The notes: generated from the letters alone by a model not told the origin. Positions 18,881 through 53,792 are shown, numbered from the stretch's first letter. The stretch: 64,000 nucleotides of DNA from Phoronis australis (GCA_002633005.1 NMRA01000611.1:184248-248247), one strand, 5' to 3'. Numbers and translations: made by a program.

Positions 18881-21350
18881 CATAGCTGTGAGTGATCTCT
18901 AAGCATTGTCATGTCAAATGCCAGAATCTGCAATGGTAAAATAGCAACACTTAAAGCCATTAACTTTTATAACAACATAACAATTGTTAACAAAACGTAA
19001 ATATCATGACGGTTTCAACAGAAAAAACAATAATATTGTTTACAACACAACACATTTAATGTGCACCAACATCCATGAAAACGAGAGTTTAAAACCCAAG
19101 AAACCTTACAAATACGAGATCTGGTGGGTCATTCACAATTGAAAGTACTTCCAATCCTGGGGATGTAAAACTGTAACATTTTATTCTCAAAATTGATTGG
19201 GGATTGCACTTAGCAAAACAGTACATCCAAAAGTAGCAAGAGCATTGAAGACAAAATAATTATCTACATTTGGAAGGAGTCAACAAAATTACAATCACGC
19301 AAAAATTATTGGAAATTGAGGTCACAGACTCTTGACCATAAGACACAGAGACAGCAGTACTACACACTTGCAAAATCTGGCAAATAAAAATGTCATCAGT
19401 TGATCATTTCTATCAATGTCAATAAGGCCACATTGAAATTCCAAAAAAGTAAAAAATGTAAAAAAGGAATGAGAATCAATCATGTAGCAAACACAATAAA
19501 CATTGAATTAAAACCTATAAGCAGAGAAAGTGTTGAAGACAATGTGTCAAAATTTTGAAAGAATCCACAAACAGTGCGCTGACCATAAGACACCGACATG
19601 ACACTAATTATACACACTCCCATGACGATATGTTTGGGCAAATAAAAATGTCAAGACAGTAGACCCAGTCTCTTTGGTCCAATACCTATAACAAACTTAA
19701 TAAGTCCTCATTGAAATAACAGCAAAATATGGAAACTGTTCCAAAACATTCCAAAGAAACAAACTTTCACCTCCTCACATCAGTATTGGTTGGACAATTT
19801 CAATTCACCTTTCTGAGAAGACATGTTTAAAACTGTCACTCATAATCTATTCAAAGACAGATCTTAATTTTAAAACAAATCTAACATCTAAATCACTGTT
19901 ATAAGAAAACCTGGCTTTAGTGAGATGGTAGTGGTCATTAGTGTCCTGTAATTATTCACGAAATGATCAACCGTATGAGCTCCTTTTATTTAAAACATTG
20001 CTTCATAACACAAAATATCAGTGTCATATAAGACCATCCAAACAAATATTAAAATCATCATCTAGATCATGCAGAAAGTTTTGGACAACTGGATAGTTTT
20101 ATATCATCAGAGCATTGGTATGCACTCACCATCCACCTCGTAAACAGCAAATTAATATACTATGTAGGCTCGTTAACCTAATTTGATTTGTAAGGTTTAA
20201 AATTGATACAAGGGTGATTCAGAAGGCATCAGAAGATGTAAGTCACCACAAACAAAATGCAGACACTTCAAGAGCAGAGAGGTTTGGTAACCAGAGTTAA
20301 GGTAAAGGTAAAAAATAAAAGCGCCTCCAAGTGGTGCAGCCTGCAGACAGAGAGATCGATCCTACAACAGATTCCAAAAAATAAGAATTTTCACTAGGAG
20401 ACACTTATTAAACGGTTGAAAATACGAACATATCTGATAAATTTTGAGCACCATCCAAGGAACATTGATATGGAGGTAAATGCCAAAATATAACATTCAC
20501 ACAAAGTGGCGTAACAGTCAACCAACTTTTATGAAAAAATCTCAAGAAGTTTTGCGTGTAAAGTCTGTGAAATATAACAGACACCCAGATGTAGAACACC
20601 CAGGCATTGGTATGCACCCACGTGTATGTGAACATGTGGGCGTATGAAATCAAACCCTAATCTCTAAAAGAACCCTTTTTTCCTCTTTGAGGACTTAAAT
20701 AAATCTTTTTGCAAGATTTTCTAAATATTATTCATGCAGCATGGGCTTGTATACTAAGAGAAAGACAGGCGAAGGATTCTAAATCCACACACTGGCATTA
20801 TAAATGCATGAAAAAATTTAACACCACACTAATTTGAAGAAAAACTTTTAGAGTTATATGGGTCTTTTCCAAAATAAACTATCGTGGAATTGTTCACATG
20901 CATCAAATATTACGAATAAAAAGTACAGTTCTATTGGTAATATCATACACAACAGTTTTGGCACATGAGAAAAATATGAATGGATTGTGGTAAACAGTAT
21001 GACCAGCACTCTTTGCTGTCTTATTTACCATTAACATCCTTCACACATCACAGTCATCAGGCAAAATCAAGTTTGTAAAACGATACAATGAACACAGGTT
21101 TTTTACTTATACCAAGAACTCAGACATCACACTGAGATCAATATCATATAACCAGCAAGCACTTTAGTCTTCACACAGCTCAACATCCTCAAACTAAGAT
21201 ATTTGATTATGAACTGAACTCAGGACTACACTTCGCTCAGCGACCTTAAACTAAGACTTAAATATCCCGCTAAGCCTAATACCATAAAATGAAGAACTCA
21301 GATCTCTAACAGAGCTCAGTAAATCTGAAAATCCAAGCTGTGTCCTGAGT

Positions 21351-24300
21351 TCATGCAATGCTGTTCAAACAAGGATAGCGTGGCGTTAAACTGATGCTTT
21401 TTGCCACACTTTCCATTGTCAATATCTTCTTCAGTTTATCTGTGTCCATGGCAACAGCTGGGTTCAAAGGGCAGGTGATCCCCTGAGTCATACACATAAC
21501 CTAGAGAGAACGTGACCACATCAGTAGGAGAGAATGACTAATTTTTACACATAACAATTGAAACCGGCCCATTTTTGACTGAGGGACTGATGACTCAATT
21601 ACTATACCAAAGCAATTAAGAATGATTGTTTTGAGAAGAAGAAAATTCTCATTACCCTGCAAGGGGAAGTTTAAAAGATATTACTAAGAACTCTCAAAAA
21701 CTACCAGGCAAATAGTCAAGAACTGGAAAAAATCAAGTCAGCATACTTATAGCATTAAAAAAGTTGTCGAAAACTAGCATTCATAAGGCAAAATTCTGAC
21801 GTTTCATAGAAATTTTGTTACGGGCGCACACTTGAACAAATCTTAACTTTGGAACGGAAGGTGAGACTGAATATTTTGTCACAAAAGCTACACGAAAACC
21901 TGACGGAGTACACAACATAATCTCATGGAGTAACCAGTCAATTGGGAATTCTTGATATTTGAAGAGGGCACTGAAAATTACCTGGTGTGAGTCAGCCTTG
22001 ACTGTAAATTGGTGGCTTTTGCCCACTTTCTTGATCTGACCACACAGGCTAAAGGAGTTGCCACTTTTCTACAAGACCAATAACAATTTGATTATGATAA
22101 TTCAGGGGCAAACTGGCATGAAATAAATGTTATGGAAACTAGTTGGTGTAACCAACACAGACTATCATGGTTAAGCATTTTTACAAGCATGCGAAACACT
22201 TGATGGTGAGTGAAAACTGGAAGATACAGTAAAAAAAAATTACTGGTGACCCATACCCAGATAATCACCGACAAAAATTAGTTGCGAATTAACGAGTAAG
22301 TCAAGACATACAAATACCGACCTTGAGGTAGACACACTCCTCAGTAGAGTTGTAGTAAACAGGATATCTTTTGGTGAGCATTACAGCTACATACTTCCTT
22401 ACTTGAATTCTGTTAGACAAATCTAAAGATAAAAAATTAGATTTCACTTCTCATTTGGAAAAGGGCAAATTAAGTCACCTACAGGCATAATTAAATCAAA
22501 ATTGACAATTTCAAACTTTGACATAGCAAGTCTTGTTCAGAACTCCTAATAACGGATACAAACACACTGTATTAAAAGACATGTCGTTATCATAAAGTTA
22601 TACCTACTTACATTATTGAATAAGCCCAAAATGAAGCTAATTGAGAACTAAAACGTTAACGTCCAGTGGAAAATTGACTGGAAGAAAGCAATCATTGGAT
22701 CATGACTTAAGCTAAACATTACTTAACCCCTAGCTTTCTAACATAGATTGAAATTTTTTTCTACACTTATACCAGGTAGTCCTTGGTCACCTTTGACCTC
22801 TTCACGTGACTCACTGGTAACCGGGACACCAGAATCACCAGCAGCAGTTGACAACACTGTTGACACTAACGAAGTGGACGACTCAACAATCTCTGGACCG
22901 GCCTGGATGACAAATAAAGCTTTGCTGTCAGCAGTTTGTTCTTACCACAAGGCTCTTGTTCACTTTATAGGAAAGGTGGCTGCCTTCACAATTACAGTTG
23001 AAGGGAATCCCCCCATTGGCCGCTACCCCTTATCCAAAATTACCATTTTGCATTAAGTGATCTTGGATTTTTTAATTACTGGAGGGTAATTTTGTGGTCT
23101 GATGACGCTTACACTCCACATCAAAATCATGGCACTGAGGTCATTGTATTGTCATGTAAGACTAAGGTATTCTTCAATTTAAGACAACTGGAGTTAAGTT
23201 AGTGAAATTTCTCAACAAAACCAACTTTCAAGATGAATGGTGTGTACACTACTGCTGCCACCAAGAATCTGTCCTACACCTGGGAATTCCCGGCAACGTA
23301 CTACAATAAAGCCTTTTACAACAACGAATAGCAATTTTAGCATTCTTTTTGTCCAAAAACTGAAGAATTTTTCAATACTGTTTTTGATTTTAATTTATGG
23401 TCTACTTGCCAGTCACCATTAATATTCAGAAGGTTACACACACAAAGGTTTTAATGAAATTTTCTCTGACAACAATAAAACTGGGTAAAGGACTACTTGA
23501 TTATAGTGACCCCAGTTTTTACAAGAAAGACTTATTTATTTAATGTCTTTTAGTCACATAGAATATGACAACTTAACAAGAATCAGTAAGCAATTATAAT
23601 AGTAACAAAATTTTGAAAGAACAAAAGCTCTGACAAAATATTTCCTTTAAAATTCAAGTCTTATAGAGAACATGAAAATAATATCGAACCAAGTACCAGC
23701 ATTACACAGCAGAAAAGTTCCGTGGCATATCAAGTTAATCGCGATTTCTTGGTTAATCTTTTATACGATATTTCTAAAATCAACATACAAGAGCCTCTTT
23801 GTTGGATTTTTTAACTAAAAAATTAGCAAATAATTGTTTAACATAAAAATTGGTTTCAATAACGAAAAAACTGCCAGCTCCACCATAATTTCCTTCGCAG
23901 TTGAGCACACAAGACGGTGCTGACACCTACCAGCACACGTGACTTTCTCTTCCTGCCCTTCCTACTAGGCGCGTCCCGTGGTGTGCTGGCTCGGCTCACG
24001 TCCTCGTTACTGTCATCATTCAGCACCAGACCCCCCACCGCCGTGTCTACTGATCTATGGTCACCTCCACCCTGGACATAACTCTGAAATACGAAAAAAT
24101 CACCAATTTCGGACAAAAATAACTGCCAGAATTGGCCCCTGTTCAGTTTCCAAAAGTTTCTAAATAAATATTGTTATGGATGCCAACATCGTACACAACG
24201 TTACCTGACGGCAGCTTACAGAACTTGCTAATGGTAAAGCATCACTTTAGTGGTACAAGTTTTTTTGAAAAAATAAGAAAACTAAATCTAAAGTATCCAC

Positions 24301-27300
24301 AATATCCTCTCCAAAATTGGCCAAGTTAGATGATGTTCATGAACAGCGCTACCTACAGGACACTAAGGAAACATGTCAGCCAGTCTGCCCAGAGTACATA
24401 ATGCCTCAAGAACTTCACGTTTTAGTAGTTAAAAGGTACATCGAGCGCTGTTTAGGTAATAAGACCATATTTAGCATATTAGCATTTAGCAAGTGTTGAA
24501 TGCTTTGGTTTAATTATGACAACAACAAAATCAAGTCATCAAACAAGAATGAACACATACCTCTTAGTTCTCTATGGTTATACTGTGGTAGAAATGAAGC
24601 TCATTACATTTATGGCTTTATAACCAGTTCTATTCTTCATTCATTTTACTTTGAAATGGGCCATTTTTGAAGTGATTAAGTATCGCTCAATATAACTTTA
24701 ATTACAGGAGTCCTCTGGCTATCAGAAGGTTGAATTATCTTAATGTCTGACAGCATACCAATCCACTCTTCTGTAAAGTTACATACCTAGACACTGTAAA
24801 GTTACATACCTTGACACTAGTGTACTGGTTGCTGTTTAGTGACTTCTCACCACGGTTAGCACAAAACCAGTATAATGCCGCGCCTGAAATATGTAAAGTG
24901 TTCTATATAAATGAAACCTATTTGGATCAAATGTAGCCTAGTCAAAAATTGGATATAACCTGTATCACTTGAGATACACAAACAAAGCAAGTCAAGGAAA
25001 CAGCTGAGATTTTACAAAATGTCATACAAGACAAATACTTCCCTTTATTGAACAGCTAAAAGCACAACCAAAATAGAGATTTACGTCAACCTTCAAAATA
25101 AACAGTATAACTGTTTTATAGTATTTTGGTTATGAGACAAAGTGCCCATTGAAATGAAAACCATAAAGTTCTTGCAATCACTTAAAGCTGCGTTTCTTCC
25201 CCGTTTAGCTGTCAAATCTTGAATTCTTAACCACAGTCCGTTTGAGATTTCAAAATATTACCATGCTCATCCAATCTTCAATGAGTGCCAAATGAATCTA
25301 TTAGGCATCTCAAGTCACAGGCAATGTATACATTAGTCATTTGGAAATGGCAATTTTATAGTTGGCCAACCCTAATCAACCCCGAAGTGTTTTTTCTTTG
25401 AGTCGCTGATGGTTTTGATTTTCTTGTTGGTAACGGAAACAGAATCCTATTGGGTTAAGGAATATTACGAGACTGACTTAATGAGAATAAAAAACCTGAT
25501 TGGATTTTTGTTTTCAGAGAGCTGAACAGGGCAAAGTGTAGCTTTAAACTAATTAGTTAACATTGCTAACAGTAATTACTACATTGTCATAAAATCGGGT
25601 GTAAAAACACTAAGTTCAATCGTCAAACATGATGAATGTACACATGGATCAAGTAGCTTTCTGAAGAGTACATAGCTTACTCACCTAAAAGAAGACACAA
25701 TGCACTCAGGCTTGGTAACACATACGCCTGGGGCAGAGACACAGGCCATGTGATATCCATATTTTGAAACCATAACGTTAATGAGTCAATGGTCTCCGAA
25801 AGAAAGTCTGCAGATTCATCCAACTGGCACTGCAAAGTAAGAGCACCAATCTGACTATCTACACGATATAAAACTGACAGGTATTTAGTTATAATATCCC
25901 CTCATCATAAAGAACCAGACTGAGTACTATGTTTCAGTTGGCAAACACGTTTAATTGACATCGGACAGCAGTGCTCTGTTGGTAGAAGTGACACGACGAA
26001 AATCTAAATATTAGGCGACAACCATAAACCAGAGGTCAACCTAGATTCTGAATAGTTGCTGCTGCCTTTTTCAAAATTTTTCCTACTTTCTCAAGACAAC
26101 AACCAAAACTATAATTTCCAACAAATTCCACTGATATGCTGACATTTGCTGCGACTCCACTTTATTAGAAATGAATACTAGGAGATCTACAATAACAACA
26201 GCATTGGGACACATTCAGAAAAGCTTGTCACTGTCCCATAGACTTGCATGGCTTCATAAAACACTGACAGAGTCTAACTGAACATTTAACACACCATTTG
26301 CCTGATAAAATAATCCACATCACATAATGCGAAAATATACTGTTCAAAAACTGAATTATCTGCAAATTGTGCAGATTAACTGCAAACAGTGCAAGTTAAC
26401 TACGGATATTGCAAGTTATCTGGTTACAAATGGCAGCACAGGACCAAATGCAGTCAATTGTACTTTGTCATTTTTCAGTCTGCAGTGTCCGAGGCATAAT
26501 TGGTGATAAGCTGAGCTGTTTTGTCGCTCAACCAAGGAGGTCAGTGCAGGCTTGCTGAAAACATCCACAGCCTCTGTTAAGTGCTTAGAAGGAAAAGGGA
26601 CTACAAAAACTATTATACCCAGACATATCTTGTAATCAAACTAAAATAGTTCAGACCATACCCGACACTTGTGATACGAGCAGCAGTGACATCTATGTGT
26701 CAGAGGAAGAAGCACTGTTTGCTGAACTAACATGTCTTGTTTCTGGTTTAGAACAGTGACTGAAAACAAATGAGCAAAAATTAAAAAATATAGGTAAAAA
26801 TTTTATGAAAAAGTAAAAGGCAGTGCAGAACCATTTGTTCAGCTAGAAGAGGCAGTGTGGTCTAGTGGATAAGGGTCCGCCTCTTTTACTAAAAGTTGTG
26901 GGTTTGAGTACCCCTGGGGCACACTGTTAGACCTTTGAGTCAGGTCTGTAGCTTCTCGGCTCTTAAAGCATGGAAAAAGTTAAAGGTGATCTGTCCAATG
27001 GGCCAAACTGAGTGGCATGCGCATGACTGGTACAACGTGTGCCAGACTGCCTGCAATTATTTTTTGCACAGCTAACAAATCTTAGAATAGTTTTTAAAAT
27101 ACTTCAGTTTTGTATGAAGCGCAACCAAAACAAGATATTCATGATTTTCATGAAAAAAATCTAAAGTTGAAGAAAACGTAATACTAATTTAGAAAACTCT
27201 AACAGCGTTTTTGAGATTTCATCTTACATCAAATGAAATTTGGTCAGTGTTATTGATGCCATTGATTTGCTATCAATGTACATTAAATTCTCTTCTCTTA

Positions 27301-30300
27301 AATTTTACGTGGCCAATGACAGCTTCTTACAAATTTAACATAAAAAATCCAGATATACAACAGGCTTTCCACTTTTAGAAGATATAAACTTTCACAAAGT
27401 TGAAATCCATATTTTTGTAAATACTTCGATAAAAACACAGACATATATATGCATGTGATGGGCGTATCACTCAATACAACTGTTCATGTCAGTTGTGACA
27501 ATGCTCCATAATGAAGTAGATGTATTGCAGCCTATAACAGACACCAACTACACGTGCTAGTGAAATCTATGAGCATTTCTAACTATATTATGCAATTGTT
27601 ATGAAACTTGTATTTCAAAGCAAATGTGTATCAATACAATTCTACACTGTACGCTTTCTTGTAGTTTCACGTACAGTTGTCCAATACAACTTGAGGTGTT
27701 TTGAGAGTGAGTGCTTCAACCACATGTCAACTATGTCATTTCTTACCGTTACATTCTACCTCTTCTTCACATGGTTCCGAGTGGTTGAGATAAAACGTCA
27801 CTGTCCGATTCCTCTTAGCTAGAATGTGTACGGTCTGGTTAAAGTTGTGTACGATCACATCACATGTTTCAATACATAACACCTGGGTGACGGTAAAGGT
27901 ACTTGATACTACATCATTGTTGTAGACATTCACAAGGACTGCTGTGGAGCTTTGAGATTCACGGTAGCTGGTAATGTCTAGTATCTGAGCCTTGGCCCTG
28001 TAAATACAAAGAAAGGCAAGGATCTCATATCAGACGTTAAAATTGCTGTGGAAAGTGTTCGTAATTCGGCAGTTAAGAGAAGATAAAAATGATGTGCACC
28101 CGGCAACGATAGAATTTCCAAGAATAAATATAAATAAGAAAAAGCGAATGTCAGATATCAACAGTTAACATGTACCCCAAGCCCATTGAATACCAATTTT
28201 TCATACTCGAAACTCGACCAATCTTTCACTCACAATTCGTGCGGGTTTGAAACGGAAATTTTGCAACAATGCAATGTACAGAATAAACAACCTTTTTAGC
28301 AACAGAATTACAGAAAGAAAAAGTGAATAAAACCTAAACATTGCATAATTTCAGCAGTAACAACACAACACTTACCTTGACTTGATGAACAGCATTTCAT
28401 CGATAGCAAACTCGATGGTGATTGTTATATTACAGTCTGAAGAGTACTCCACAGACAGTACTTTCTCACCATCAGGCAATGACATGACGTGATAGAATTC
28501 ATAGATGTGGTTGGACAGCCAGTACTTCCCATCCACCTCGGCAACCAAACTAAGTTTATCTTCCAACCACAAGTGGAATGGCTGATTCTTCAAGCAACTG
28601 AAGAGACAACGAGGGAATTTTAAGTTAAAAGGACAAATACGTCCTATTCAAAAAAATAAAGACCAGGTTTCTCAGCTGCATTGCAATATGTCTCAAATCT
28701 TTCCACTTAAGACTTAAAAAGATGTCAAAAAGGACATCAGTTGTGACAAGGTTGGATAATTGTTTCAAAACTGCGTGGGCTGCTTTGTATAAGAGATGAG
28801 CTCGCCATTCCTTGTCCCAGTAGACAAATTAATAGTTATCACAGCATCAGAGCTGGGTTCCAGCAACCCTGCTTGTATGCAAAAATTGTTGAATTTACCG
28901 TACTGATATATGTTCATTACATTTAAGAAAGGACACTACTCAAACTCCCAATACAATTTCATAGATCCTTCAAAGTGCAAGAATAGAATACAACACATTG
29001 ATTTCTCAAAATTTCTTCACTGAGGTTTTTTGTGAGTTGAACAACAACATAAAAGACAAAACAGAATTGTTCACAGATTCAGAAATTGAATTTCAGTTCA
29101 CTTATCATAATTGACAGATTAGGATTTCAAAGTGCACACTAACAACACCTCATGCATTATTATAAGTCGTGACCTGTCAATATCTTTGTTGCATCTGTCC
29201 TTTTGGTTCGTGAATGCCTTGAACGAGACTCCAACCTTGTTACATTCGTCACCAGAGTCAGTGAAAATGCGTTTGTTGACTAGCATCATGTCTGCCATCT
29301 CTTCCTAAAATCAACAATTGAAAGTAAACCTGTGTCAGGGGTCTTATATATGAACTAAGACTCGAGTCAGACTTAAAATTTAATCAGGCTGCACGAGTCA
29401 GGTAGGGTGTGCTTGTGCTATACTGAGTACATGAATTCCGTACGAAACTATTACACAATCAATCGGTAAGACTAAGTCTGAGAACATCAGGCAAAAGTGG
29501 AAACATAGCATATCACAGATTTTTTAGACATAGTTTGGGTGAAATGATGAACATCCACCTTGGTAGATTCACTTCAGAGCATGTGCCACTTTAAGGAAAA
29601 TGAAACCACCCACACACTCGGGCTATGATAGGCTATGTTCAAAAGTGTGAATTTTTACATTTCTCTGAACTACCAACATTGGGAAACAAAAGAATGTCAT
29701 AATCACATCAGCAGTTCTATCCATTTTGAGATTGAAGACTTGAAATAAGGGTACAGTCTTTTCACACGTTATATAAATTTATTCAGTTTTGTGCCCACCT
29801 ACTCATACACTATATAAATTTATTCAGTTTTCTGCCCACCTACGGCATTATGTATGGCCAGTGGAAATGACTAACTTTTGCACATGACTCTTAAGTCAGA
29901 GTTTTTGAGATTTTCACGATATATCATATACTTATCAAAAGACCCATCAAGTTGTTTCCACCAATGTATGAAAAACACATCATTGTTGTCAACGAATCAA
30001 CAAGAAAGGTCAACTTCACAACTGGAGGCGATAGTGAAGGGTAGTGGTTAGGGTCCATACAGGAAAGTTGGTGAGTGATTTTTTTCATGGACAATCTAGT
30101 CAAACACTCTACGTCTTGCAAACTGCAATATTTATCAGATCTATCCAGCATGCGAGAGCTGCCAGGAAAGAACACAACAATCACTTAGCATTGCAAGATA
30201 TTGTGGAAACTGAGCTTGTTATGTGCACCACCATTTTCATCATCGGGATACATAACGATCATTAAATTTTTATGTAAGAGCGATCCCACAGCCCATGCCA

Positions 30301-42300: not shown

Positions 42301-45300
42301 GTCGGAAAATCATCGTCAGCTGTCTTATTTATAGTAAGAACATGCCAATTTCCACAATCATCCTTAGAGTGGTTTGGTTGATAGAGGGGTGGACTGATAG
42401 ACTGTGAAATGTAACAATTTTGTAACAACTGTTACATTTTACATCATTGTTACATTTTAGGTTGCTAAGCCTCTCCTGAAATGTAACAAATAGTTACATT
42501 TTACATAGTTGTCATGCCAGAAATGTACCATTGTTACATTTTCCAAAACCCACATCATATTGCAAAGAAAATGACCAAAATCAAGAACCTGACACGGCGG
42601 GGGTATACTGGAGTATTTTTAGATGAGGAGTGGCGCCCGGAAAATTTGAATACCTACCCGTTTAAGAGAGTGGGCTTGAACTAAAAAGTGACCCATTTAG
42701 AGACTAATTTATGTAAAAATTCACATTTTCCCACAGAAATTCAGAAAGCCACCTTTTAGATATAGTTTTGTCGGAAATGGCACCATTTTGGAGAGTATTT
42801 TTTTCTGTGAAAAAAACACCCTGTTGGGCTGCACTTTTCATATACATCTTCTATAGGAATGAGTCGGGCTGACATGACATGAATTTGGCTACTTATTATG
42901 ATTTTTATTAGTATTACATTACTATCACTGTTACTGCTACTACTGCTTTTACTACTATCACTAGCATTACTCTTTGTCGCTTCATTTTCGTTATTATTAT
43001 TATTAATATTTTTAAATTTATTGATTGAGGACACAATACGTGTTTAACAAAGTCCTGATACATTATGGTCCTCAAAGATCTTAAAATCATTTCATTTATG
43101 GTTCAATGTTGTCATCGGGCTTTCCATAGAGGACGGCGAGTGCTGTTCGAAAAGGATTTTAAAGGGGCTCCTATGTTCAGCTTTAACTATATTGCGAGGA
43201 ACGTCTTGACAGCTGTAGATGCAGAGTAGGCTTATTGTTTGGAAACAGGAAGGCTGAGATTTAAAATCTTGTTTAGACATGCACCAACTTCAAAATTGAT
43301 TATTTCTGACCTATCACAAGCACTGTATTATTTGTAAATATAACTAAATTAATCTGAACTGAATTCAGACCGCAATATTGTCTCTGACTTGTTGAAAACA
43401 TTCCTTGTCAAAGAACTGGGATTCGTTCCATGGTGATATGGAAGTTCAAAAATTGTGTTAAGTTGAACTCTGGAGGCACACATTTTTCGGCAATTCTAAC
43501 GACTAGTCGGCTGCGGTCACCGGGTCATTAGAATAGCTGGTAATGGACATACAAAACACGCAACGATTTTACGTGGAATGGGCCCCAATATTCTTAGAAA
43601 AGTGCTGCGAGTTAACAGAATGATTACAGCTAGGTTTCATTGAGAATGGATTGCATAGAACAACAACCGCCAACGGCAAAGTCAGCAATGTTTAATATGA
43701 ACATTAAATGCAATGCAGCAAAAAGATTAATATGCCAAATTCCCTTATGTACGAGCTGCAACACAAAAAGTGGCACCTCATGAGACACATGCCTTCACGT
43801 CCAGTCAGCTTCTTTGGACTATAAGTGTACCTTTAAATTATAGTCCTTTCAGAGTGCAAAATATTTTCCCCAGCTAGGCATCCCACTTTTATGTATACAC
43901 GTCACGGTTTCATCTGTTGTTACCACCGCTATTTCAAGCAGGTTAGACATCATAGAAACTTTCTTTCGGCGTTCAAGCTGTATTACACACGTTACTATGC
44001 CATCATTTTTTACACTATTGGCTCGCTGTGCTCAAAGGTGGCGTTTTGCTGTTGCTTTGGCAAAGCCTGTCTACCTGCCGGCAAATAAAAACGTGCTTTT
44101 ATTTCCTTCCATCACAATGTTTAAGAAATTGCCATTCCTAACTAAGGTGGTAGACAGAGCCCATGGGCATCAGCAACTTTGGTTTTGCTCTTTTTGTGTG
44201 GAGCAGGGCAATTAGGGCATTAGCGATGACTCCAAGGCAATAAAACAATGGCCAAAATAAACTAAAACTGGTTTTTTTCTATGAAATTGGCTTCCGAAAT
44301 TGAATTCTCCATGAAAAAATTGTTGTTGTCCTTCGTTTCCGAAGAAACACAATAAATTTTAGCCAAATACAATGTCATTATTGTTCATACCAAGGGAAGC
44401 GTGTTTACTATAATGTGGGATACACAGTTGCTCTATGAGCGCCAACAAAAGATTGCAAGAAAGCTTTAACGATAAAAAACTTGTTACCTGATCCTGTAAA
44501 ACTCCTTTCGCGTGGAGTTGAAACTGAACGCTGAGCATTTTTGACTACACTATAAAACTATTCACGTTAAAAAAACATGGAAAGTGCATAGGGACACATC
44601 TATCAAGTCGACCTGGCACATTTCATTCAAACTATCCGAGAAAGAAGGCATTAAGTGTGTCAACGGTTTTCCTCGGTGTGACAAATACAATGCAAACTCA
44701 GGAAATATGATGTGGCTTTCCTCTTTCTGGCATGTAACAATTACATAAATAATAATGTAACAACTTGTTACATTTCAGGAGAGGCCTAGCAACCTAAAAT
44801 GTAACAACTGTTACATTTTACGAAATTGTTACATTTTATCAGTGGACGCCTAAAAACAGACTAAAACTTACAGTAAAAATGGCCACTAGGTTGCGCAAAT
44901 TACGTTGAATCTATCCGAAAACGGGAGGATAGCGTCGTCTCACTAATAGATGCCAACATGCCAAATTTTATGAAAATACACTGAAGACCTTTGAAGATAT
45001 AGGTAACCGTAAAAAACTAATTAAAATTGCCACCAGGCGGCACACCAGTAGTCGGATCTGTCTGAAAGTTCGCTCATGCCATCCCATCCATGAACTGAAC
45101 ACATGCAAAACTTCATGAACATAATCAAACGGTTTTTGAGTTAGACTAGCGGACGCCACACGGATGAACGCTGGACGAACGCCGCACAGAGATGACGGCA
45201 TAATGCGTCCACCTATAAATATGTGGGTGCATAATAATTGAGTAATAAAGGAAATATAAATCATTAAATCAAAAATGCCAACAGCATATGGGAAGATGAA

Positions 45301-48300
45301 TACTTGATCAGAGTTGACGTGATAATCCAATTGCTTCCATCACTGGGATTGAATCATTTCGATATACACAAAAACAACATTTCCAAGTTAGTATAAAACA
45401 GTACTTGAAACGAAATTAATAATAGATGAACCATCCATTCCTTTTGGCAGTAGAGACGAATTAATCACAGCACCAGAACAGGGTGGCAGCAACTTCGCTT
45501 GTGCACAAAGTTTATTGAATACGTGGCAATGATGTTTGTTTATTATAGCTGACATTCGCCTAAACTCTAGATCTGTTTGTTGAGCCTTTGAAGTGCAACA
45601 ATAGAGTAGAATACATTGAATTCCCAAATTTCTTCTGAGGCTTTGTGTGTTGGACAAAAACAATTAAAGCAAAAATTAAAAAGCAAAAATTACAATTTTA
45701 TGGACCTCTCACATTCAGGAATTCAATTTCAGTAGATTTATTGTAATCGAATGGTTACAATTTTGCGATGGAGACTAAAAATTAAATGCATTATCATAAT
45801 TTATGACCTATCAATGTCTTTGTTACATCTTGGTTTGTAAAAGCCTTGAACAAGACTCCAACATTGTTGCAATGATGCCCAGAGTCAGTGAAAATGAGTT
45901 TGTTGACTAGCATCGTGTCTGCTATCTCCTCTTACAATCAACAATCCAGGATAAACATTGGTCAAAGGTCATACATATGTACTCAGATTCAAGTCAGACT
46001 TAAAATTTGTAAGTTTACTCAAAGCGTAGCAAGCACTTGATCAATATTGAAGTCAAATTACGAGGTTCAAAAAATAGGCCCACTAAGGTGTAATGTGGTG
46101 TTATACTGAGTCCGCGCAAGATACACGCCAGTAACACAGGTTGAACTAAAACAAAAAGTTCAAGGAAGCTATATACATGATGCTACACAACAATGTCTTC
46201 ATTCAGCCTAGTAAGTAGCCAAACGACACTTGGATAACATTCCTTAGGAAATAAGTTAACGGGTTACTAGTAATCAGACCGCTAGACTGAAAATTACAAG
46301 ATCCCAAGGTTCAAACCTTGCCATCTAACAGGAAAAATAAAATCCAAGTGCCACCATGAGGGTAGGATATACCAGTGATGTAACACCTGAAGATGGCTGA
46401 AGTGATCGACCCAAACAATGTGCCGAATGTAATTAAGCTTGAGCTTGGGGTAAATACATGCAGGGAATTTAGCCATGATGTTAGATTGTTGTATTTTGTT
46501 ACTTGTGACCTGTCATATTCTACCCACAAGCTCATTTAATTAATAAAATCACAATGTTATCAACTGATATCAGATCAGATGATGACTGAGCAGGAAACAT
46601 CAAAATGAGAACTGACGTCATTCCGATATCGCTGAAATTTAAGACCAGTCTTCCCTGTTGTCATTTTTGATTTAAAATTGCATCTGGCAAAGACCACAGC
46701 ATTTGCCCCAACATGTCCCCATACAACTGCAAAGTTTCTTAAATACAAATACAAATAGTAGGTAACTTATACCGTATAATTTTAAACAACGTATTCTTGG
46801 AGCAATTCCAAAATTAGACCAAAAAAGATAAATAGGACTGACCACTGAAGAATGTCATCTGGAGTATCCCACAATAAACGCAGCACGAGAGAGGACAGCT
46901 GATATGTGGGAGGGTATCAGTTAATAAATTCTCAGGTCATGTTTCAACCTTCACTTAACACAAAACGTATCCTGGAGATTCAACATGAAAGAATCAGACA
47001 CAGAAGTCAGACGTGCAAGACATTACACAGCACCAGTAGTGGTCATTTTGGTTCTGATTTTGCTGTTGGCCTTGGTCAGTTTTGGATTGGCCATCTATGT
47101 TCTCTTTGAGGTACAACACCTGAAGGACAAAGCAGCCACAAAGAATGATGGTTTTCAGGACCGGCTCAAAGTTAATGTACTGGACGATGGTCAAACCACT
47201 GTGTACAATGAACTGGTGAAACTGAAACAAGAAAACAACCACCTTAAAGTACGTCTTTCTCAGAGCGAGAGAAAAATGGAGCGTCAGCTTAAAATCATGC
47301 GTGCAACCATATTAAGTCAATATGAACAAGCAGAAACCATGAACACTCTTCAAAAAACCGAGTTTGAAGTGAACAAAACCATGTCAATTTCTCGAGGAAA
47401 GCGTACAGTCCACAACCCCACAGCAGAAGTGACCAAGTTTCAGTGTCTACAAGGAAGAGATGGCAGAGATGGGCGTGATGGCCAACCAGGACCCCCCGGT
47501 GCCAATGGCATTAGTGCAGATGACTTGCAGAGAGTACTGAGCACATTCCAGGAGTCCATGCTGCAAGCACAAAAGACTAAGACGGAGGTGAAGTATCACA
47601 ATGGGACTGAAGGTGGAGCTGTGTACATAAGGTGGGGACGAACATCATGTCCAACAATGTCCAAACTGTTGTATGATGGGATTGCAGCAGGTTCATATTA
47701 TGCTCACACTGGAGGTGGAAGTGAGAAGCTTTGTCTCCCACATGATCCACAGTGGGGAAAATACCAAGATGGCTTCCAGAGTAATTCATACATATACGGT
47801 GCTGAATATCAAATCAATGGTGCCAAAGTATTTTCGCGAAAAAATGCGAATGACGCAAGTTTGTATGAGCATGATGTTCCCTGTGCTGTATGCTACACCC
47901 CATCGAGAGCCTCTCAACTCATGATTCCAGCCCGGAGAGAATGTCCTGCCACCTGGACCAAAGAGTACAGTGGATACCTAATGGCAGAGCAATACAGTCA
48001 TCACCGGTCCTCATTCGACTGTGTTGATGAAGCCCCAGAGGTGATCCCAGGAGGTGGTACCAACCAGAATGGAGCACTATTCTATAATGTTGAAGCCACA
48101 TGTGGATCATTGCCTTGTCCTAACTATGTGGATGGACGGGAACTGACCTGTGTTGTGTGCACCAAATGACCAAGAAAACAATAACAAAAATGTGTTTTCT
48201 AGATGTCAAACATTGAACACAAGGAACGTAATGTGCCATCATTAAATCAAGTAATAAGCATATTCAAATGATTAATAAAATATTCACAAAATTGTAAAAT

Positions 48301-51300
48301 CAAAAATACCAGCAGAATATGGGAAGACAGTGCTAGATCAGTGTTGATATGATAATTCAGTTACATCAATCTCTTCCTTGGATTGGCGCATAAAAACACA
48401 CACACAATTAAATATTTCATGTTTTACTTAGTACATAAACAACAAATTATTACCACGCAGAACTACAGAGGAAATTCTGAAAATATAAGCTATGTAATGT
48501 CGCATTGCTAATATTAATAAAACTGCTTTGGTGTGGCTTACCTCTTCATCTGTCAGTGCAGAGTCAAAGTTTGGTAGGAGAAGTCTACTGTCTTCATAAT
48601 CAAACAGCTCCTTAGGGGTGCAATGTGACGTTTGATAGTCGGCAAAAAACTAAAGTAAAGAGAATCAGACTGACGACACTGTATTTGATAATAAAAACAC
48701 AGTTTAAGATTACTGTCAACATTTTGTCGTCATCCTTGAAAATAATAATCCCTTATTCGCTGCCCAAAAATTAGCAGAAAAGTATTTTCACACACAACGA
48801 CTTATCCCAGGAAGGAACAAGTTGATATCAACTTTTTAATTTGGTATAACAATTATTCTAATCAAGTCAGTCTTTTTGGCAAAAAGCATGTTCAACTGTC
48901 ATCAATTCAGCGCACTGAGTAGAATAGAATGCCTGAAGACTTTTTTACCTTGTTTGTGGCAAAACGCATTGCTTGCGTTCCGACAGTAATGCTTGTTTTT
49001 CCGAGCAAACTCCGCCAAAGTACATCACCGTTTTCCTGTTCATGTGCTTCATACAATGACACAGCCACCTGATTTTGTAGAGTTGGACGACCAATGGAGT
49101 ATGCAGCATACCTAACAGAGACACACATGGAGTGGAAGTGAACAAAGTTGGATGACCAATGGAATATGCAGCATACCTAACAGTGACACACATGGAGTGG
49201 AAGTGAACAAAGGGCCAGACAAACCTAGCATTTTCTGTCCTTCAGATACAGGAGGCAAGGCAATCATTGGCCTTCGACATGTATTCAAATTACAATCTCC
49301 CCGTGTTCCTAGACGAATTTCAATGCTAGTTACTGTTCCTAAATCACCGCTTAACAACAAGTAATACATGTATCCTTCCCAAACATACATAATGCACATG
49401 GAAATTGACATGATACGACAACAACAAACTGGCATAGAAATACATCTTTGAAGATTCTTTCTAAAGCACCAACAATGCTCAACTCACAAATGTTTCACAC
49501 AAAAATGCAACTGTTTGAAGACTTGATCTGTTGAATGACAGTTGCCATATGGTGAAATTCTGCAAACACCACCCCCTCCAAAAATGTGAATTTTTAAACG
49601 CAAGAAATTGTTTAACACTGTCCTCAATTCAGATTTCTGATGATCGGGCCCACTCAAACAAAAACTATATCTAACACATTTTGTTCAAATGAGTCCTACT
49701 GCGACTACAATTGCACCACATGTGTTTGAACATGCACGGTTGCAAAGATTGCAAAGCCATTAATGGTTGAAGTAATCGCAGATCATCTACAACTTGCAAG
49801 AAATAGTAGAGAAAATATTAATTGCAGTGTCTGCTGAGCAAACTTAGGAAAATGCTGACTAACAGGACAGACGATAAATCCATAATGTACCAGAACATCT
49901 CGAGCACAGCACTCATCTTTAACTAGTATTATGACATTGAATTTAAAATTTGATTATCTTAATCCGTGACAAAGTTTGTGTCCGTGGAGTTTGGTAGATT
50001 AGCCATCAAGATCAAAATAAACACACACCAGAGTGAATCAAATCTCAGGCAATGAGCACTTGAATACAGTGATTTGTTAAGTGGTCCTGCGTCACCGCCG
50101 TTGGGACAAATCACCGACCGTCCTCTTTGCAGACCAGATGCATTGCGACAGGGACAGCAGAAACCCTACAAAAGACGAGACAGATATCAGGTACTCAATA
50201 TCAGTCAACTGAAGCAGATGTATTGTGCTTACACAAAAACTGTTTATCACGCACTATTTCATACAATTTAAATTTTTTTTAATTGCATGCAGTCTGATAC
50301 ACGTTGTACCAGACCTGCGCACGCAGCGCATGTGGGCCCATTTTTATGCTTAAAACCGAGCTGAGAAGCTTGAAACCTGACTCAAGGGTTTAGCAGTGTG
50401 ACCCAGTGGGACTTGAACCCACGATCTTGAGTCTGAGTAAAGAAAGTAGGCTCCTCTCACACTAGGCCACACTGCCTCCTCTCATACAATTATAAATTGT
50501 TATGACCTTCTAACTATAATTGTTAACGGTATTATTTCACTATAATATGTTGTATTTGTGCGTAATTTTGGAAACAGATGTTTGTGTAGGCACATTCTAT
50601 GAAACTGATCTAAACCATGCCTTGTATATAGCAACTCGCCAGTCTTTCAGTTGCTTAATCAGAACACCATTAAACACTGACAGTACATTAACTAGTGTGT
50701 GATGATTACTAGTGGTTGAACTCTGATGTTTTGTATAGGATTATAACAGCATGAGCAATCTTCTAAAGGATTCTCCTGTAGCGTAAGATGAGTGGTGAAA
50801 TTTTGGTTACTTGTTGTTCTAACCTATAACCAGTTTGGCATTATTTCAATTCCTGCAGGAGAGCAAAACAAACACTTAATATGGCAATCAAAAGAGCATG
50901 AAACTCATTGATGGACCAAGTGACACAACTGGTGATATACACAATCATACTTCCTATGTCAATAACTAAGACTATAATATTACTAACAGACCAATAGGTG
51001 ATGCTAGTGAATTGATATTGAAAATCATGAATCCCCAATGAATTTTTTTGTTTCCAAGAAAATGACTACAAAGTTGTGATGCGCAGTGTTGTAAAGAAGC
51101 TTTTGCAAGGTGTTGGCAACACAGTTAACATGTCAAAACAAGAAAAGACTCGGGCATTTACTATCCATAAAAGTTAACCATCACCAACTATGAAAGTGAG
51201 GGAAAATTCTTGTATTTAGTGCATCTGTGTAAGTCTTGCAATATACTGTGCCCATTAGATTTCACGCTAAGTGGGTGGACAATAAACTGAATGCAAAGAA

Positions 51301-53792
51301 AAATGGTAACTTAAACATAAAATTTCCTTAGCAGGCTGATTAGAAAATTGTGGATGTTTCCCAAAATAGATACTGACAACAGTTTGCCGATAATGGATAC
51401 TTTGATAATTAATTATGCCTGGGCTTAGGTCTTTACATGTAAAATACATTCAAGATAGGTCACACATTCGCAGCACTCCGTGAAAATGAAATATACCTGA
51501 CTACCCTCTACTGGCCGTCCATTGTTAAATGTCACGCCACAGGTTGGTGCAGAGTCGACAGAGTCAGAACAGCCAGAGTAGCTAGCGACGTTGTCTCTGT
51601 GTAATACGTCTTCGTGAGGACGACTATTGACGTCCTGTAATTAACTATGATTTGATTGCAAACAATTACAGAGCAATGTTCAGGCAAAATAATACAGAAT
51701 TAATTATATTTTCATGACAATTCATGACAAAATGATATTCTAAGTTTGGATATTTTTGTAGGATTCTACATAACTTTGAGCCTTTTTATGACAGTGTCTC
51801 ATTCAAGTACTTCTGAAAATTAGGAGTGGTCTAGTTAAATATTGACTGTTCACCTGTTTATGACGTCCTTACAAAGGTTTAATAAGCAAGTCTAATTTGG
51901 TTTTAAATTCTTCTCTGCACATGAATGGCATAACAGGTGATCTTCGGTGTGCGATCGGCCACAAATTGGCAGATACACATTTCAAACGGAGCTGAGCAGT
52001 TTGCGACACAATTCAACCAGCAATAATTTTAGTTATAACTTGACACTTTAGGAATGTAACGCCAACAAAAGTTGGGAACCCCAAATAATTTTACAATGGA
52101 TTACCTTGATGTACTTAAGTGGATAGACCTGATACACCTTCTGAAGTCGTAGCCTCAATATGAGGGGGTTAAAAAATGTCACGTGACCAAGTTTCCAGTG
52201 TAAGGCTGTATTCAACTTGATGTATTTGTCTGTCAGAAGATACTGCAAAATAAAAAAAAACAGTAAACGATAGATGGACAGATAACGAGAAGTAACATTA
52301 CTAGTTATTTCCGCATTCCATAAATGAGGGATTTGTACCTGTTTCATAAACTTGTCTTCAGCCTTTTCAGCTAAATCTGGTGTAATGCGACATGAGATGG
52401 CCAGGGCTGCACACCAGGTGTCTTTTAAGTATCAAAAAATTTAAAAGCCAGAAACTTGGTCTTATGCTCTACAGAACTATTTCTGAAAAATAATTAAATC
52501 TCATTTTAACATTTAGCCTTTTCTGGGAACATGAGATTGCCATTAAGGTGAACACATTAGGCTAACATCATTCAGATGATTAGCTTCATGTTTTGTCAAA
52601 AATTTCAGTCGTACTTACATTTCTAGAGGTGGGATAAGAATAACGTTATCAATTATAAATAAACTATTATGGATATTGGATCATATCGATTGTTCTTCAA
52701 CGTTCAAACCTAGTGACAACAGGGAGTCATTTTTCACATCAAACATAAAACTTGGTCATGAAATGAGACCAACGCCTGTTAAAGGATTCACTGTACTATT
52801 GCTAGAGGTTTTAAACTTAAACGTTTCCATAAAAAACAATGAGAACCTAACTTGCCCACATAGATACACATCACATGACCTAGCAATTGCAACATTTCTG
52901 TCCAGGCCGCGGGTCAGACCCGCAACCTTTTGTGTCTATCTCTATGCACATACAGTGATAGAATCTGTGATGCTCATCATTCATATTGCTGAGGTCCTCA
53001 CTTGTTTGATTGCACTGGTATCTACTTGCATGCACATACACTTTGAATGCCATACAATAGCACAGGAGAGAATGTGAATTTAAGTGAACAAAAAGGGAAT
53101 AAAATTGTTACCCATCGGCTGCCTGATTGTATTCGAGGACCTAGTTCTCAGGTCCATCCCGGGCCCCTCGTCTGGCCACTGGCGGGAATCTTCGTGTCCC
53201 GAGGCCATGACCGGTAATTAATATCAATCTCGAAATCATGAGCAACAAGCCAGAGCTAAACAGTGCATACGAATTACCAGCCATTTACCAGCACTTCCTC
53301 TCAAGTGATGGCCACCAGGTGGTGTTTGACAACTACCACGTACTACCAACAAGTGGCCATGTGACACAAAAAGATTCCGGCTAGTGACTCGACACCATGA
53401 CCCCAGGATGGGTACGAAAGCTAGGTCCTCAAATACAACCAGGCTGCCAATAGGTAACAACTTTATTCCTTATACTATGTAACGGTGCCAGCTATAAACA
53501 TTCATTCAACAAATTTAATGATCTTTTGCCTGGTTTCAATAACCTCAAACGATTAACGCTATAAAATTTCTATCGATGAATTCCATATGGCAGCACTACT
53601 CACTTGCTTATTTGGGACGTGTACAGATATCAAGACTTTCTCGGAACAGTTGGTCAGTCCAGACGATACTACCATCTCTTGGCACTTCAACACTTGTGTA
53701 CTAACATGGATTAGATCATGGCTTCCAGTTGTAGTCCACACAAAGCAAGCAGCCATCACAGCAAGGCAGAGAAAGGCATGCTTGAAAAACAT
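21351..53792 (-). CDS. HAP2: HAP2/GCS1 gamete fusogen (class II fusexin), 17 coding exons, ~800 aa
   Basis: Minus-strand exons, all GT-AG and phase-consistent: 53792-53604, 52242-52105, 51634-51497, 50165-50029, 49111-48949, 48649-48542, 29304-29174, 28597-28376, 27997-27747, 26759-26662, 25829-25685, 24883-24810, 24083-23931, 22902-22773 (or 22791), 22422-22322, 22068-21982, 21500-21351. Signal peptide; YPLKYIKDVNSRPHE; C.D...PTCG...SQGFCCPC; QRG; SAHCLRFDSLWY; DSGDECNKVGVSFKAFTNQKDRC...SCLKNQ; Ig-like domain III; CHCC..KCRC; single TM; cytoplasmic tail ending PCLNSIA*. Confidence 0.93.
26849..27060 (+). mobile_element. tRNA-derived SINE
   Basis: A-box-like GTGGTCTAGTGG and B-box-like GGTTTGAGTACC; the body is shared with the reverse copy at 50282-50480. 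Confidence 0.6.
29174..29304 (-). CDS. HAP2: HAP2 exon 7 (HAP2-GCS1 signature motif), intact copy
   Basis: EEMADMMLVNKRIFTDSGDECNKVGVSFKAFTNQKDRCNKDID(S); splices in frame to SCLKNQPFHLW at 28597. Confidence 0.92.
32072..33271 (+). CDS. Short-chain collagen C4-like type II membrane protein (copy 2), nested antisense in HAP2 intron 6
   Basis: 399-aa ORF with the same TM / coiled coil / RLKR / GPPGRDGRDGRDGQPGPPG / Cys-rich domain layout; AATAAA about 50 nt after the stop. Confidence 0.9.
   Translation: MKEKDTEVKDGSQTPVAVILSLVSLLFALISFGLAIYVVLGVQHRQERTTTTNHNDGFHDWAKKTELAEFKITIYTDLVNLKREHNRLKAHVFQTEMKTERQLRFMRTILSSKFGHAYTKIVPHDIDSKLDETTPISRLKRAANDPTTGEEFNSQCIQGPPGRDGRDGRDGQPGPPGANGITTDDLQKVLSTFQESILQAQKTKTEMKYHNGTEGGAVYIRWGRTSCPTISKLLYDGIAAGSYYTHTGGGSEKLCLPHDPQWGKYQDGFQSHSYIYGAEYEINGAKVFSRKNANDASLYEHDVPCAVCYTQSRASQLMIPAWRDCPATWTKEYSGYLMAEGYKYQRSSFDCVDEAPEVIPGGGTNQEGALFYNVEAKCGSLPCPKYVDGRELTCVVCTK
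33918..34038 (-). pseudogene. Decayed duplicate of HAP2 exon 7 (pseudo-exon)
   Basis: Reads EEMADMMLVNQHIFSDSGDECNRVGVSFKTFTNQ, then frameshifts. Acceptor TTTTAG is changed to TTATAA and the donor is lost. Confidence 0.85.
35617..36807 (+). CDS. Short-chain collagen C4-like type II membrane protein (copy 3), nested antisense in HAP2 intron 6
   Basis: 396-aa ORF with RGRR site, GRDGRDGRDGQPGPPG and the same C-terminal domain. Confidence 0.9.
   Translation: MKESDNDVRRARHYTAPVVVILVLVLLLALVSFGLAIYVLFEVQHLKDRTATKDDGFQDRLNVDKLDESQTTLYNELVKLKQENKHLKARLSDSERKMERQLKVMRATIFSQYEHAQTKNTLQKTGFEVNETTLISRGRRTAVNFPTAGEVTKFQCLQGRDGRDGRDGQPGPPGANGISADDLQKVLSTFKDSMLQAQKAKTDVKYYNGTEGGAVYIRWGRTSCPATSKLLYDGIAAGSYYTHTGGGSEKLCLPHDPQWGKYQDGFQSNSFIYGAEYEINGAKVFSQKNANDASLHEHDVPCAVCYTPSRASQLMIPAWRDCPATWTKEYSGYLMAEHYLHQRSSFNCIDVAPEVIPGGSPDQEGALFYHVEAKCGPLPCPNYMDGRELTCVVCTK
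37115..38110 (+). mobile_element. Decayed Penelope-like retroelement (RT + GIY-YIG remnants)
   Basis: Frameshifted motifs G..M(G)SPVSP..NWYMEEFEE, WFRYVDDTFV, HTDHYLQFGSHH, GVIRTLYHR, CGECPETYVGETKHSLKAR, GHSFDHDNVLIL, LNQQGG. Confidence 0.8.
38188..42394 (+). repeat. Composite HINE/pearl-like (non-autonomous Helentron-type) tandem-core repeat array
   Basis: Heads (A)ACAAGA(G/A)CAAC at ~38188, 39155 and 40428. ~140-160-bp cores contain CCAAATTTCATGAAAATCC and GCCACTAG(G/A)NGGC. GGAC microsatellite and terminal hairpins at ~40135-40214 and ~42135-42190. Confidence 0.65.
42395..44841. mobile_element. Non-autonomous TIR DNA transposon, TGATA...TATCA, 6-bp TSD GTGGAC
   Basis: ~100-bp imperfect TIRs built from AATGTAACA/TGTTACATT units. 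GTGGAC is duplicated at 42389-42394 and 44842-44847. Confidence 0.75.
44842..45237 (+). repeat. Continuation and 3' end of the HINE-like element interrupted by the 42395-44841 insertion
   Basis: Resumes at GTGGAC|GCC and ends with GGAC repeats and the hairpin GCGTCCACCTATAAATATGTGGGTGC. Confidence 0.65.
45808..45931 (-). pseudogene. Decayed duplicate of HAP2 exon 7 (pseudo-exon)
   Basis: Reads EEIADTMLVNKLIFTDSGHHCNNVGVLFKAFTNQ, then a 7-nt deletion (AAGGACA) frameshifts it. Acceptor is changed to TTGTAA. Confidence 0.85.
46985..48169 (+). CDS. Short-chain collagen C4-like type II membrane protein (copy 4), nested antisense in HAP2 intron 6
   Basis: 394-aa ORF with RGKR site and the same architecture; upstream ~700 bp nearly identical to that of copy 3. 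Confidence 0.9.
   Translation: MKESDTEVRRARHYTAPVVVILVLILLLALVSFGLAIYVLFEVQHLKDKAATKNDGFQDRLKVNVLDDGQTTVYNELVKLKQENNHLKVRLSQSERKMERQLKIMRATILSQYEQAETMNTLQKTEFEVNKTMSISRGKRTVHNPTAEVTKFQCLQGRDGRDGRDGQPGPPGANGISADDLQRVLSTFQESMLQAQKTKTEVKYHNGTEGGAVYIRWGRTSCPTMSKLLYDGIAAGSYYAHTGGGSEKLCLPHDPQWGKYQDGFQSNSYIYGAEYQINGAKVFSRKNANDASLYEHDVPCAVCYTPSRASQLMIPARRECPATWTKEYSGYLMAEQYSHHRSSFDCVDEAPEVIPGGGTNQNGALFYNVEATCGSLPCPNYVDGRELTCVVCTK
49081..49210. repeat. 65-bp tandem duplication spanning the HAP2 exon 5 acceptor
   Basis: 49081-49145 is repeated at 49146-49210 with 3 substitutions. Confidence 0.9.
50029..50165 (-). CDS. HAP2: HAP2 exon 4 (cd/fusion-loop region)
   Basis: Translates GFCCPCRNASGLQRGRSVICPNGGDAGPLNKSLYSSAHCLRFDSLW; flanked by AG and GT. 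Confidence 0.92.
50282..50480 (-). mobile_element. tRNA-derived SINE (same family as 26849)
   Basis: Reverse strand reads GAGGCAGTGTGGCCTAGTG...GGTTCAAGTCCC...CCCTTGAGTCAGG...CTGGTACAACGTGT. Confidence 0.6.
53098..53467. mobile_element. Inverted-repeat MITE-like element in HAP2 intron 1
   Basis: ~65-bp imperfect inverted repeats AATAAAATTGTTACCCATCGGCTGCCTGATTGTATTCGAGGACCTAG / CTAGGTCCTCAAATACAACCAGGCTGCCAATAGGTAACAACTTTATT. Confidence 0.65.

Follow-up and report, generated by a model that had tools for sequence, protein, structure and literature searches.

HAP2/GCS1 fusogens are already recorded from five invertebrate phyla: the S1 Table of PMC6089408 places genes of this family in a sponge (Amphimedon), two cnidarians (Nematostella and Hydra), an annelid (Capitella), three arthropods (Tribolium, Acyrthosiphon and Orchesella) and a hemichordate (Saccoglossus). 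Other studies describe expression of Hydra HAP2 in spermatogenic cells (PMC2766252), up-regulation of coral HAP2 in testes (PMC7579821) and, as cited within that coral study, a fertilization role in Nematostella. According to further studies, HAP2 was not found in vertebrates (PMC8777248, PMC6117098, PMC8784728) or in ascidians (PMC9265791). Its distribution over animal phyla has been mapped (PMC13192892, Fig. 4 and fig. S5J; PMC6089408, S5 Fig), and PMC13192892 reports limited overlap between HAP2 and DCST1/2 and considers a stepwise replacement by DCST-based machinery likely.

Here we describe a HAP2 gene in a window of 64,000 nucleotides, the whole stretch of DNA analyzed, from whose first letter all coordinates are counted. 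The locus is almost certainly a real, intact and expressed HAP2 orthologue. The reading we prefer, with confidence that falls well short of certainty, is that it is a transcribed and spliced host gene of 17 exons encoding a predicted single-pass class II fusogen of 804 residues, which probably fuses sperm and egg. It adds to a family already known in invertebrates; its architecture is noteworthy and its predicted fusion tip is odd.

The open reading frame lies on the minus strand, from an ATG at 53792 to a stop at 21351, and comprises 17 exons, 16 introns that are all GT-AG, and 2415 nt specifying 804 amino acids plus the stop, with zero internal stops; each of 2000 random joins of same-length regional pieces contained at least 26. 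Exons were placed by a six-frame motif scan, reading of the sequence and phase checking, which gave 13 exons and 649 residues, and the tail was fixed by RNA reads. An initial annotation had proposed 17 GT-AG exons joining without stops into about 800 residues that bear the canonical HAP2 motifs; our model, built independently, arrived at identical limits, and the motif scan recovered every motif on the minus strand, at the place indicated and in the expected order. A 16-exon version with an acceptor at 22409 was rejected, being out of frame, and reads instead give a junction at 22773/22422. Seven junctions (E1/2 to E6/7 and E13/14) were set by splice consensus and frame, with collinear homology in addition for exons 1-7. 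Intron 6 (48541-29305) is 19,237 nt long, and the remaining 15 introns measure 253-1361 nt.

All exons that follow are on the minus strand. Exon 1 (53604..53792, aa 1-63) provides a hydrophobic N-terminus with C37 and C49, and was placed by frame, hydropathy and the HAP2 profile; exon 2 (52105..52242, aa 64-109) carries the YPLKY motif, with frame, pairwise and profile matches in agreement; exon 3 (51497..51634, aa 110-155) contributes E117, C131 and PTCG (C141), by frame and HAP2 profile; and exon 4 (50029..50165, aa 156-201; PF10699 E 8.9e-05) holds GFCCPC, the cd loop, where R169 and two N-glycan sequons lie, and SAHCL. Exon 5 (48949..49111, aa 201-255) and exon 6 (48542..48649, aa 256-291), the latter the donor of the 19,237-nt intron and placed by frame, share a bin with minus-strand RNA depth. 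At the exon 5 acceptor there is a 65-nt tandem duplication (49081-49212, 95.5% identical) that supplies a second acceptor 65 nt upstream, at 49176, whose use would shift the frame. The live exon 7 (29174..29304, aa 292-335; 45.5 bits) encodes the ECNKVGVS core of PF10699, a segment that we take to be the one named ECNKxGV, and is joined by reads to exon 8 (28376..28597, aa 335-409; PF10699 E 5e-06), which runs from SCLKNQ to the end of domain I. Reads also join exon 9 (27747..27997, aa 409-492), where the predicted fold is that of an Ig-like domain III; exon 10 (26662..26759, aa 493-525), with the end of domain III and a cysteine-rich segment, the exon lying partly within the HAP2 profile match; exon 11 (25685..25829, aa 526-574), with the stem and, by hydropathy, most of the predicted transmembrane helix; and exon 12 (24810..24883, aa 574-598), where the helix ends and the tail begins. 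The tail continues through exon 13 (23931..24083, aa 599-649), which has the polybasic run RKGRKRKSR, a 5' junction in reads and a predicted 3' donor; the Ser/Thr-rich exon 14 (22773..22902, aa 650-693), with a predicted acceptor and a 3' junction in 4 + 3 reads; exons 15 (22322..22422, aa 693-726) and 16 (21982..22068, aa 727-755), each with reads at both junctions; and the coding part of exon 17 (21351..21500, aa 756-804 and stop), whose junction is present in 6, 6 and 2 reads. Minus-strand read depth carries the transcript 3' of the stop to at least 20500. Hydropathy, scanned over residues 1-649, peaks at residues 1-19 (1.85) and 562-580 (1.88), and on hydropathy only we predict an N-terminal signal peptide and one transmembrane helix.

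Family membership was apparent from several comparisons. PF10699 was searched with 16 exon pieces; matches came from exons 4, 7 and 8, in order, at profile positions 115-155, 252-289 and 293-363, and exon 7 exceeded the curated cut-off (27.4 bits) by itself. In sequence searches of the PDB, all six matches to exon 7 were HAP2 (E 3.8e-06 to 0.33), 7S0K ranked first for exon 4 (E 0.18), and exon 3 had no match. We retrieved 121 HAP2 homologues with phmmer and a profile search, the latter represented by its best 120 of 261 matches; phmmer, run over 1.84 billion representatives, gave nine matches, of which eight resemble HAP2 at 44-62%; the ninth (P0126) is unrelated and was excluded. A word-based search with exon 7 gave one candidate and no match. 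The best identity to any of the 121 is 24-31%. The 97 homologues that reach 560 aa were made into a profile, which aligns to residues 16-508 with 282 bits, and a pairwise alignment joins residues 12-506 to homologue P0121 at 124 bits, so that domains I and II are collinear with known HAP2. Since no close relative was retrieved by the word-based search, by phmmer or among the best 120 of 261 profile matches, this branch of HAP2 appears to be unannotated in the protein collections searched. In a metagenome scan, nine loci had HAP2-like frames that run long without interruption, none of them a close relative; L001, L003, L004 and L006-L008, with such frames, have 46-59% GC.

The conserved framework of the family is largely retained. 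In the 97-member profile 67 columns reach at least 80% conservation; 49 of them are kept and 18 differ, and the latter include A258, which replaces a 99%-conserved Gly so that the GDF motif reads ADY, and M297, which replaces Trp. The tip cysteines C131, C141, C158, C159, C161, C175 and C194 occupy columns that are 87-92% Cys, and Glu117 (column 91%) and Arg169 (88%), a predicted salt-bridge pair, are kept at the residue level. Seven tip cysteines, a Glu of strand b and an Arg of the cd loop are the invariant anchors named in section 6 of PMC6089408; our domain labels, and the assignment of the ij loop to exon 7, derive from alignment and from the statement in that paper that the loop lies within the pfam10699 segment. 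Modeled from a 60-sequence alignment, exon 9 is predicted to be all-beta (pLDDT 85), and in Foldseek the domain III chains of Plasmodium HAP2 ranked first to third among 350,542 (TM 0.54-0.68), with weak E-values (0.047-0.08) and with a bias toward the HAP2 fold introduced by the HAP2 alignment on which the model was built. The profile match also spans this region, and exon 9 is predicted to form an Ig-like domain III. Exon 14 has no match in Pfam, and the 224-aa tail as a whole has none in Pfam or in the 121 homologues; it contains 31 K/R and 22 D/E, a net charge of +9. A positively charged tail is needed in Arabidopsis HAP2, according to PMC2841615.

Transcription was assessed in three raw stranded RNA runs (X1, X2 and X3) from unspecified tissue and bearing the same species label, of which about 18-19% each was read. 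Reads were placed over 20500-34300 and 29130-49129, ranges that take in exons 5-17. The initial annotation had asked for splice-junction reads: spliced, stranded reads were found in all three runs, and at least nine of the 16 HAP2 junctions are present among the joints listed over 20500-34300, where there are three further joints. Reads in X1, X2 and X3 number, respectively, 5, 0 and 2 for E7/8; 3, 5 and 0 for E8/9; 0, 7 and 0 for E9/10; 7, 9 and 0 for E10/11; 3, 3 and 0 for E11/12; 5, 5 and 0 for E12/13; 4, 3 and 0 for E14/15; 3, 5 and 0 for E15/16; and 6, 6 and 2 for E16/17. E13/14 is absent among the joints listed over that range, the three further joints aside, and two of the nine junctions are displaced by nearby variants in a way that reconciles with the model. 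Reads over HAP2 exons have the minus-strand RNA orientation, and a nested gene with the opposite orientation serves as an internal strand control. In the bin of exons 5-6, depth on the HAP2 strand is 1.7, 3.4 and 0.8. Expression, roughly estimated at 2.7, 2.3 and 0.8 RPKM in the three runs, is a lower bound because many fixed differences separate the reads from the window sequence. Four silent and three replacement variants were displayed in exon reads, too few to judge. Over 32000-33300 the reads of all three runs show many fixed differences and small indels relative to the window, from which we take the donors to be a divergent population or a cryptic species of the same label. A Logan contig run (X4) contained nothing useful. 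Altogether, the original proposal of an intact HAP2/GCS1 gene is upheld by the PF10699 and PDB matches, the predicted domain III fold, spliced RNA and the purifying selection on exon 7 described below.

The protein also departs from expectation at the predicted fusion tip. We define the cd loop as the 31 residues between the CCxC and AHC motifs, and could parse it in 90 of the 121 homologues, none of them named as animal. It has six hydrophobic residues, the median of these comparators; it lacks Phe and Trp, as do seven of the 90; its hydrophobic moment, 0.43, lies below the median of 0.53, and 27 of the 90 have an equal or lower value; and it contains two N-glycan sequons (N163 and N185), where 85 comparators have none, four have one and one has two. 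The predicted tip is thus unusually polar, odd but not out of range. A HAP2 orthologue under selection that no longer joins sperm to egg, acting instead in somatic fusion, adhesion or bilateral fusion of the EFF-1 kind with a glycan-shielded, non-inserting tip, might look like this, and we regard that as possible though clearly the less probable account. Besides the loop, it would accommodate the changes at several near-invariant residues, the unmatched tail and the low level of RNA in all three samples, a pattern that does not show sperm specificity; and the tip of EFF-1 is described, in PMC8784728, as acidic and non-inserting. Against it, the loop is unremarkable in hydrophobic count and its moment is matched or undercut in 27 comparators, sequons may stay unoccupied, and section 6 of PMC6089408 states that HAP2 tip loops are highly variable and are short in sponge, cnidarian and annelid proteins. 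Given those short tips and a comparison set without named animal sequences, a polar cd loop may be normal for animals.

The unusual feature of the locus is a giant intron with three nested genes and two dead HAP2 exon copies; neither the genes nor the copies figure in the initial annotation. Self-BLAST resolved intron 6 as a threefold tandem repeat of a unit made of exon 7 and an antisense gene resembling short-chain collagen: the surroundings of exon 7 recur at 33581-34052 and 45419-46008, and the promoter, coding and 3' flanking segments of the intronless plus-strand gene are each present three times. Along the plus strand the order is exon 7 and gene A, copy a and gene B, repeats, copy b and gene C, then exon 6. 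Genes A (32072..33271, 399 aa), B (35617..36807, 396 aa) and C (46985..48169, 394 aa) are all short-chain-collagen-C4-like and on the plus strand; B and C are 85% identical, and A is 70-71% identical to each. Plus-strand RNA depth is 20-33 over gene A and 18-27 over gene C in X1 and X2, and 0 over both in X3; gene B has little RNA (depth 0-2.6). Gene C appears to end near 48470, where five X1 reads begin, with AATAAA at 48274 and 48516; lying about 70 nt from the exon 6 donor, this end is a possible site of transcriptional interference. A cluster of dispersed repeats (38100..45250, no strand assigned), detected by self-BLAST and marked by a heavy pile-up of repeat-derived reads, is inserted behind gene B. 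Within it, a family at 39135-40468 reaches a one-strand depth of 300-670 in all three runs, the mark of a dispersed element that is heavily transcribed. Relatives of this element lie at 2.7-3.5 kb and 7.9-8.4 kb, and an Rfam search of the family gave no match. A fourth intronless short-chain-collagen-C4-like gene (918-2105, minus strand, 395 aa) lies outside HAP2 and is 60-68% identical to the nested three.

These neighbors bear on the origin of the gene. That it is the gene of a symbiont, protist or otherwise, or a recent acquisition from such an organism, could be argued from the named HAP2 matches, which among the best 120 of 261 profile matches are all from plants and protists (24-31% identity at best) and include no animal-named sequence. 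Yet a native gene that evolves fast would be just as distant from all groups, as is seen here, and protist words in the query biased the word-based search. The collagen-like genes seated inside HAP2 have named relatives that are all animal, mostly marine invertebrates, and the host is itself likely to be one; the gene has 16 spliceosomal introns; and its splicing is seen in RNA that carries the same species label. A foreign source therefore seems to us extremely improbable.

Elsewhere in the window, a large exon of an MFS transporter (58501-59634, plus strand; best PDB match the proton-coupled folate transporter 7BC6, E 7e-36) stands head to head with HAP2 and begins 4.7 kb from its start. Nested inverted repeats at 54576-56244, upstream of HAP2, are MITE-like, the best pairing 301 nt at 89% (55283-55567 with 56244-55944). 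Two inverted copies of a short element, 69% alike, occupy HAP2 introns (50280-50482 and 26845-27059); the element is presumably a tRNA-derived SINE. Between 2000 and 18000 a steady excess of T over A on the plus strand, opposite to the HAP2 region, suggests another intron-rich plus-strand gene; ORFs of at least 55 aa there gave no convincing Pfam match, and 133 further window ORFs searched against Pfam disclosed no convincing neighbor gene. An assembly gap lies at about 60900-61600, and the window holds 683 N.

The two additional copies of exon 7, both on the minus strand, are dead. Copy b (45808..45931; PF10699 E 1.7e-04) has its acceptor AG changed to AA and a 7-nt deletion, and its bin has a read depth of 0 in all three runs; copy a (33921..34038) has the same acceptor change and the same deletion, an extra 6-nt deletion, and a donor changed from GT to AT, so that intact splice sites and frame coincide in the live copy and in neither of the others. 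Copy a still scores 28 bits with PF10699 and so passes the Pfam cut-off by itself, which makes the dead copies an annotation trap. They are also an internal record of selection on HAP2. Over 116 comparable sites (21.3 silent and 94.7 replacement), the ancestor of the dead copies differs from live exon 7 by six silent and 0-1 replacement changes, one site being three-way, whereas changes private to either dead copy comprise four silent and 12 replacement, which fits neutral decay (p 0.52 against neutrality). Shared and private changes differ by Fisher test at p 0.003, or 0.009 with the three-way site counted against, on counts that are small. A copy dead from birth should, by a clock-based estimate, show about ten replacement changes where the ancestor shows 0-1. 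These comparisons show that exon 7 is under purifying selection and that two copies were once both selected; from the six silent and 0-1 replacement differences we conclude that both were long translated. Flanks of copies a and b are 81% identical and those of each are 67-68% identical to the live flanks. Flank divergence is 0.32 along the shared path and 0.10-0.12 along either terminal branch, values that the flank alignments may overstate. Gene conversion as a source of the likeness is disfavored, since silent sites on the shared branch have diverged by 0.28 per site, a value close to that of the flanks.

An open frame could nonetheless belong to a decaying gene, in which the triplication of intron 6 cuts the transcript and no full-length protein is made. 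Consistent with this, the 48542/29304 junction is absent among the 15 joints listed over 29130-49129, two of the antisense intronic genes are expressed several times above HAP2, and RNA donors that differ at many fixed sites may not represent the allele of the window. All 15 of those joints lie in repeats at 39.2-42.4 kb, and there are 170 more, which renders the absence uninformative: the 19-kb junction, singled out in the initial annotation and predicted in our model, is neither shown nor refuted. Weighing more heavily, 2415 nt are free of stops and frameshifts, reads over exons 5-6 and 7-17 share strand and have similar levels across runs, and the extra copies of exon 7 were silenced while the live copy kept silent changes only. 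Decay is, in our judgment, very unlikely.

The flank identities and the shared 7-nt deletion suggest an order of events in which unit 1 was the first to separate, the additional exon then lost its function, and the dead unit was recopied. A unit of about 4.6 kb, made up of exon 7 and its antisense collagen-like gene, would have been duplicated twice in tandem, bringing intron 6 to 19 kb, and the repeats would have been inserted later. Exon 7 is 131 nt long, and two copies in one transcript shift the frame; this may explain why the upstream copy was silenced, presumably by loss of its acceptor and the 7-nt deletion before it was recopied as a dead exon. On a bolder and rather improbable view, HAP2 once came in two isoforms because copies of exon 7, which encodes the best-conserved loop of the fusogen, were spliced in a mutually exclusive way, each copy with its antisense gene, and now fuses through a polar, glycan-bearing tip that dispenses with classical loop insertion; if so, sister species would still have two live copies of exon 7. 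A plainer history, in which two tandem HAP2 paralogues were collapsed by deletion into a single chimeric gene, fits the silent and replacement counts equally well.

We return to the preferred reading of the gene as a likely gamete fusogen. By analogy with the family, the protein would be seated in the membrane of the male gamete, the tip of its domain II would enter the egg membrane, and trimerization followed by folding back of domain III would draw the two membranes together. To our knowledge, most animals have no identified fusogen, and an intact, expressed animal HAP2 both helps to map the switch from HAP2 to DCST and provides a testable candidate; should the host be a spawning marine invertebrate, it would offer an easy fertilization system.

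The nested genes resemble short-chain collagen C4-like proteins of Branchiostoma, Lingula, Owenia, crinoids, hemichordates and corals in their N-terminal hydrophobic anchor, short Gly-X-Y stretch and conserved C-terminal domain. In a tree of 82 domains (78 of 120 matches and the four genes of the window), the four group with unnamed sequences in a separate clade apart from all named groups, with no supported placement (0.34 towards Lingula). Tandem exon duplication with mutually exclusive exons and nested antisense genes are general phenomena (PMC9013439, PMC8373072, PMC3192792), and a duplicated exon with a length that is not a multiple of three permits one copy per transcript, as here; unlike those duplications, the HAP2 unit includes a whole antisense gene, and its extra exon copies are now dead. 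Among the titles and abstract openings surveyed, none described for HAP2 a duplicated exon or a nested gene. The animal HAP2 genes listed in PMC6089408 are intron-rich, and those of sponge, cnidarian and annelid have a short cd loop, as here, likenesses drawn from published description. Compared with HAP2/GCS1 fusogens of known structure (PDB 7S0K, 5OW4, 5OW3, 6DBS, 6E18 and 5MF1; domain III, 7LR3/7LR4), the protein departs from the typical member in its 24-31% best identity, ADY in place of GDF, a 224-aa tail without match, and a cd loop with two sequons and neither Phe nor Trp; it agrees with them in domain order and conserved cysteines, and shares with the family the Glu117/Arg169 pair, the ECNKxGV core, a predicted Ig-like domain III and a basic tail, with one transmembrane helix predicted on hydropathy.
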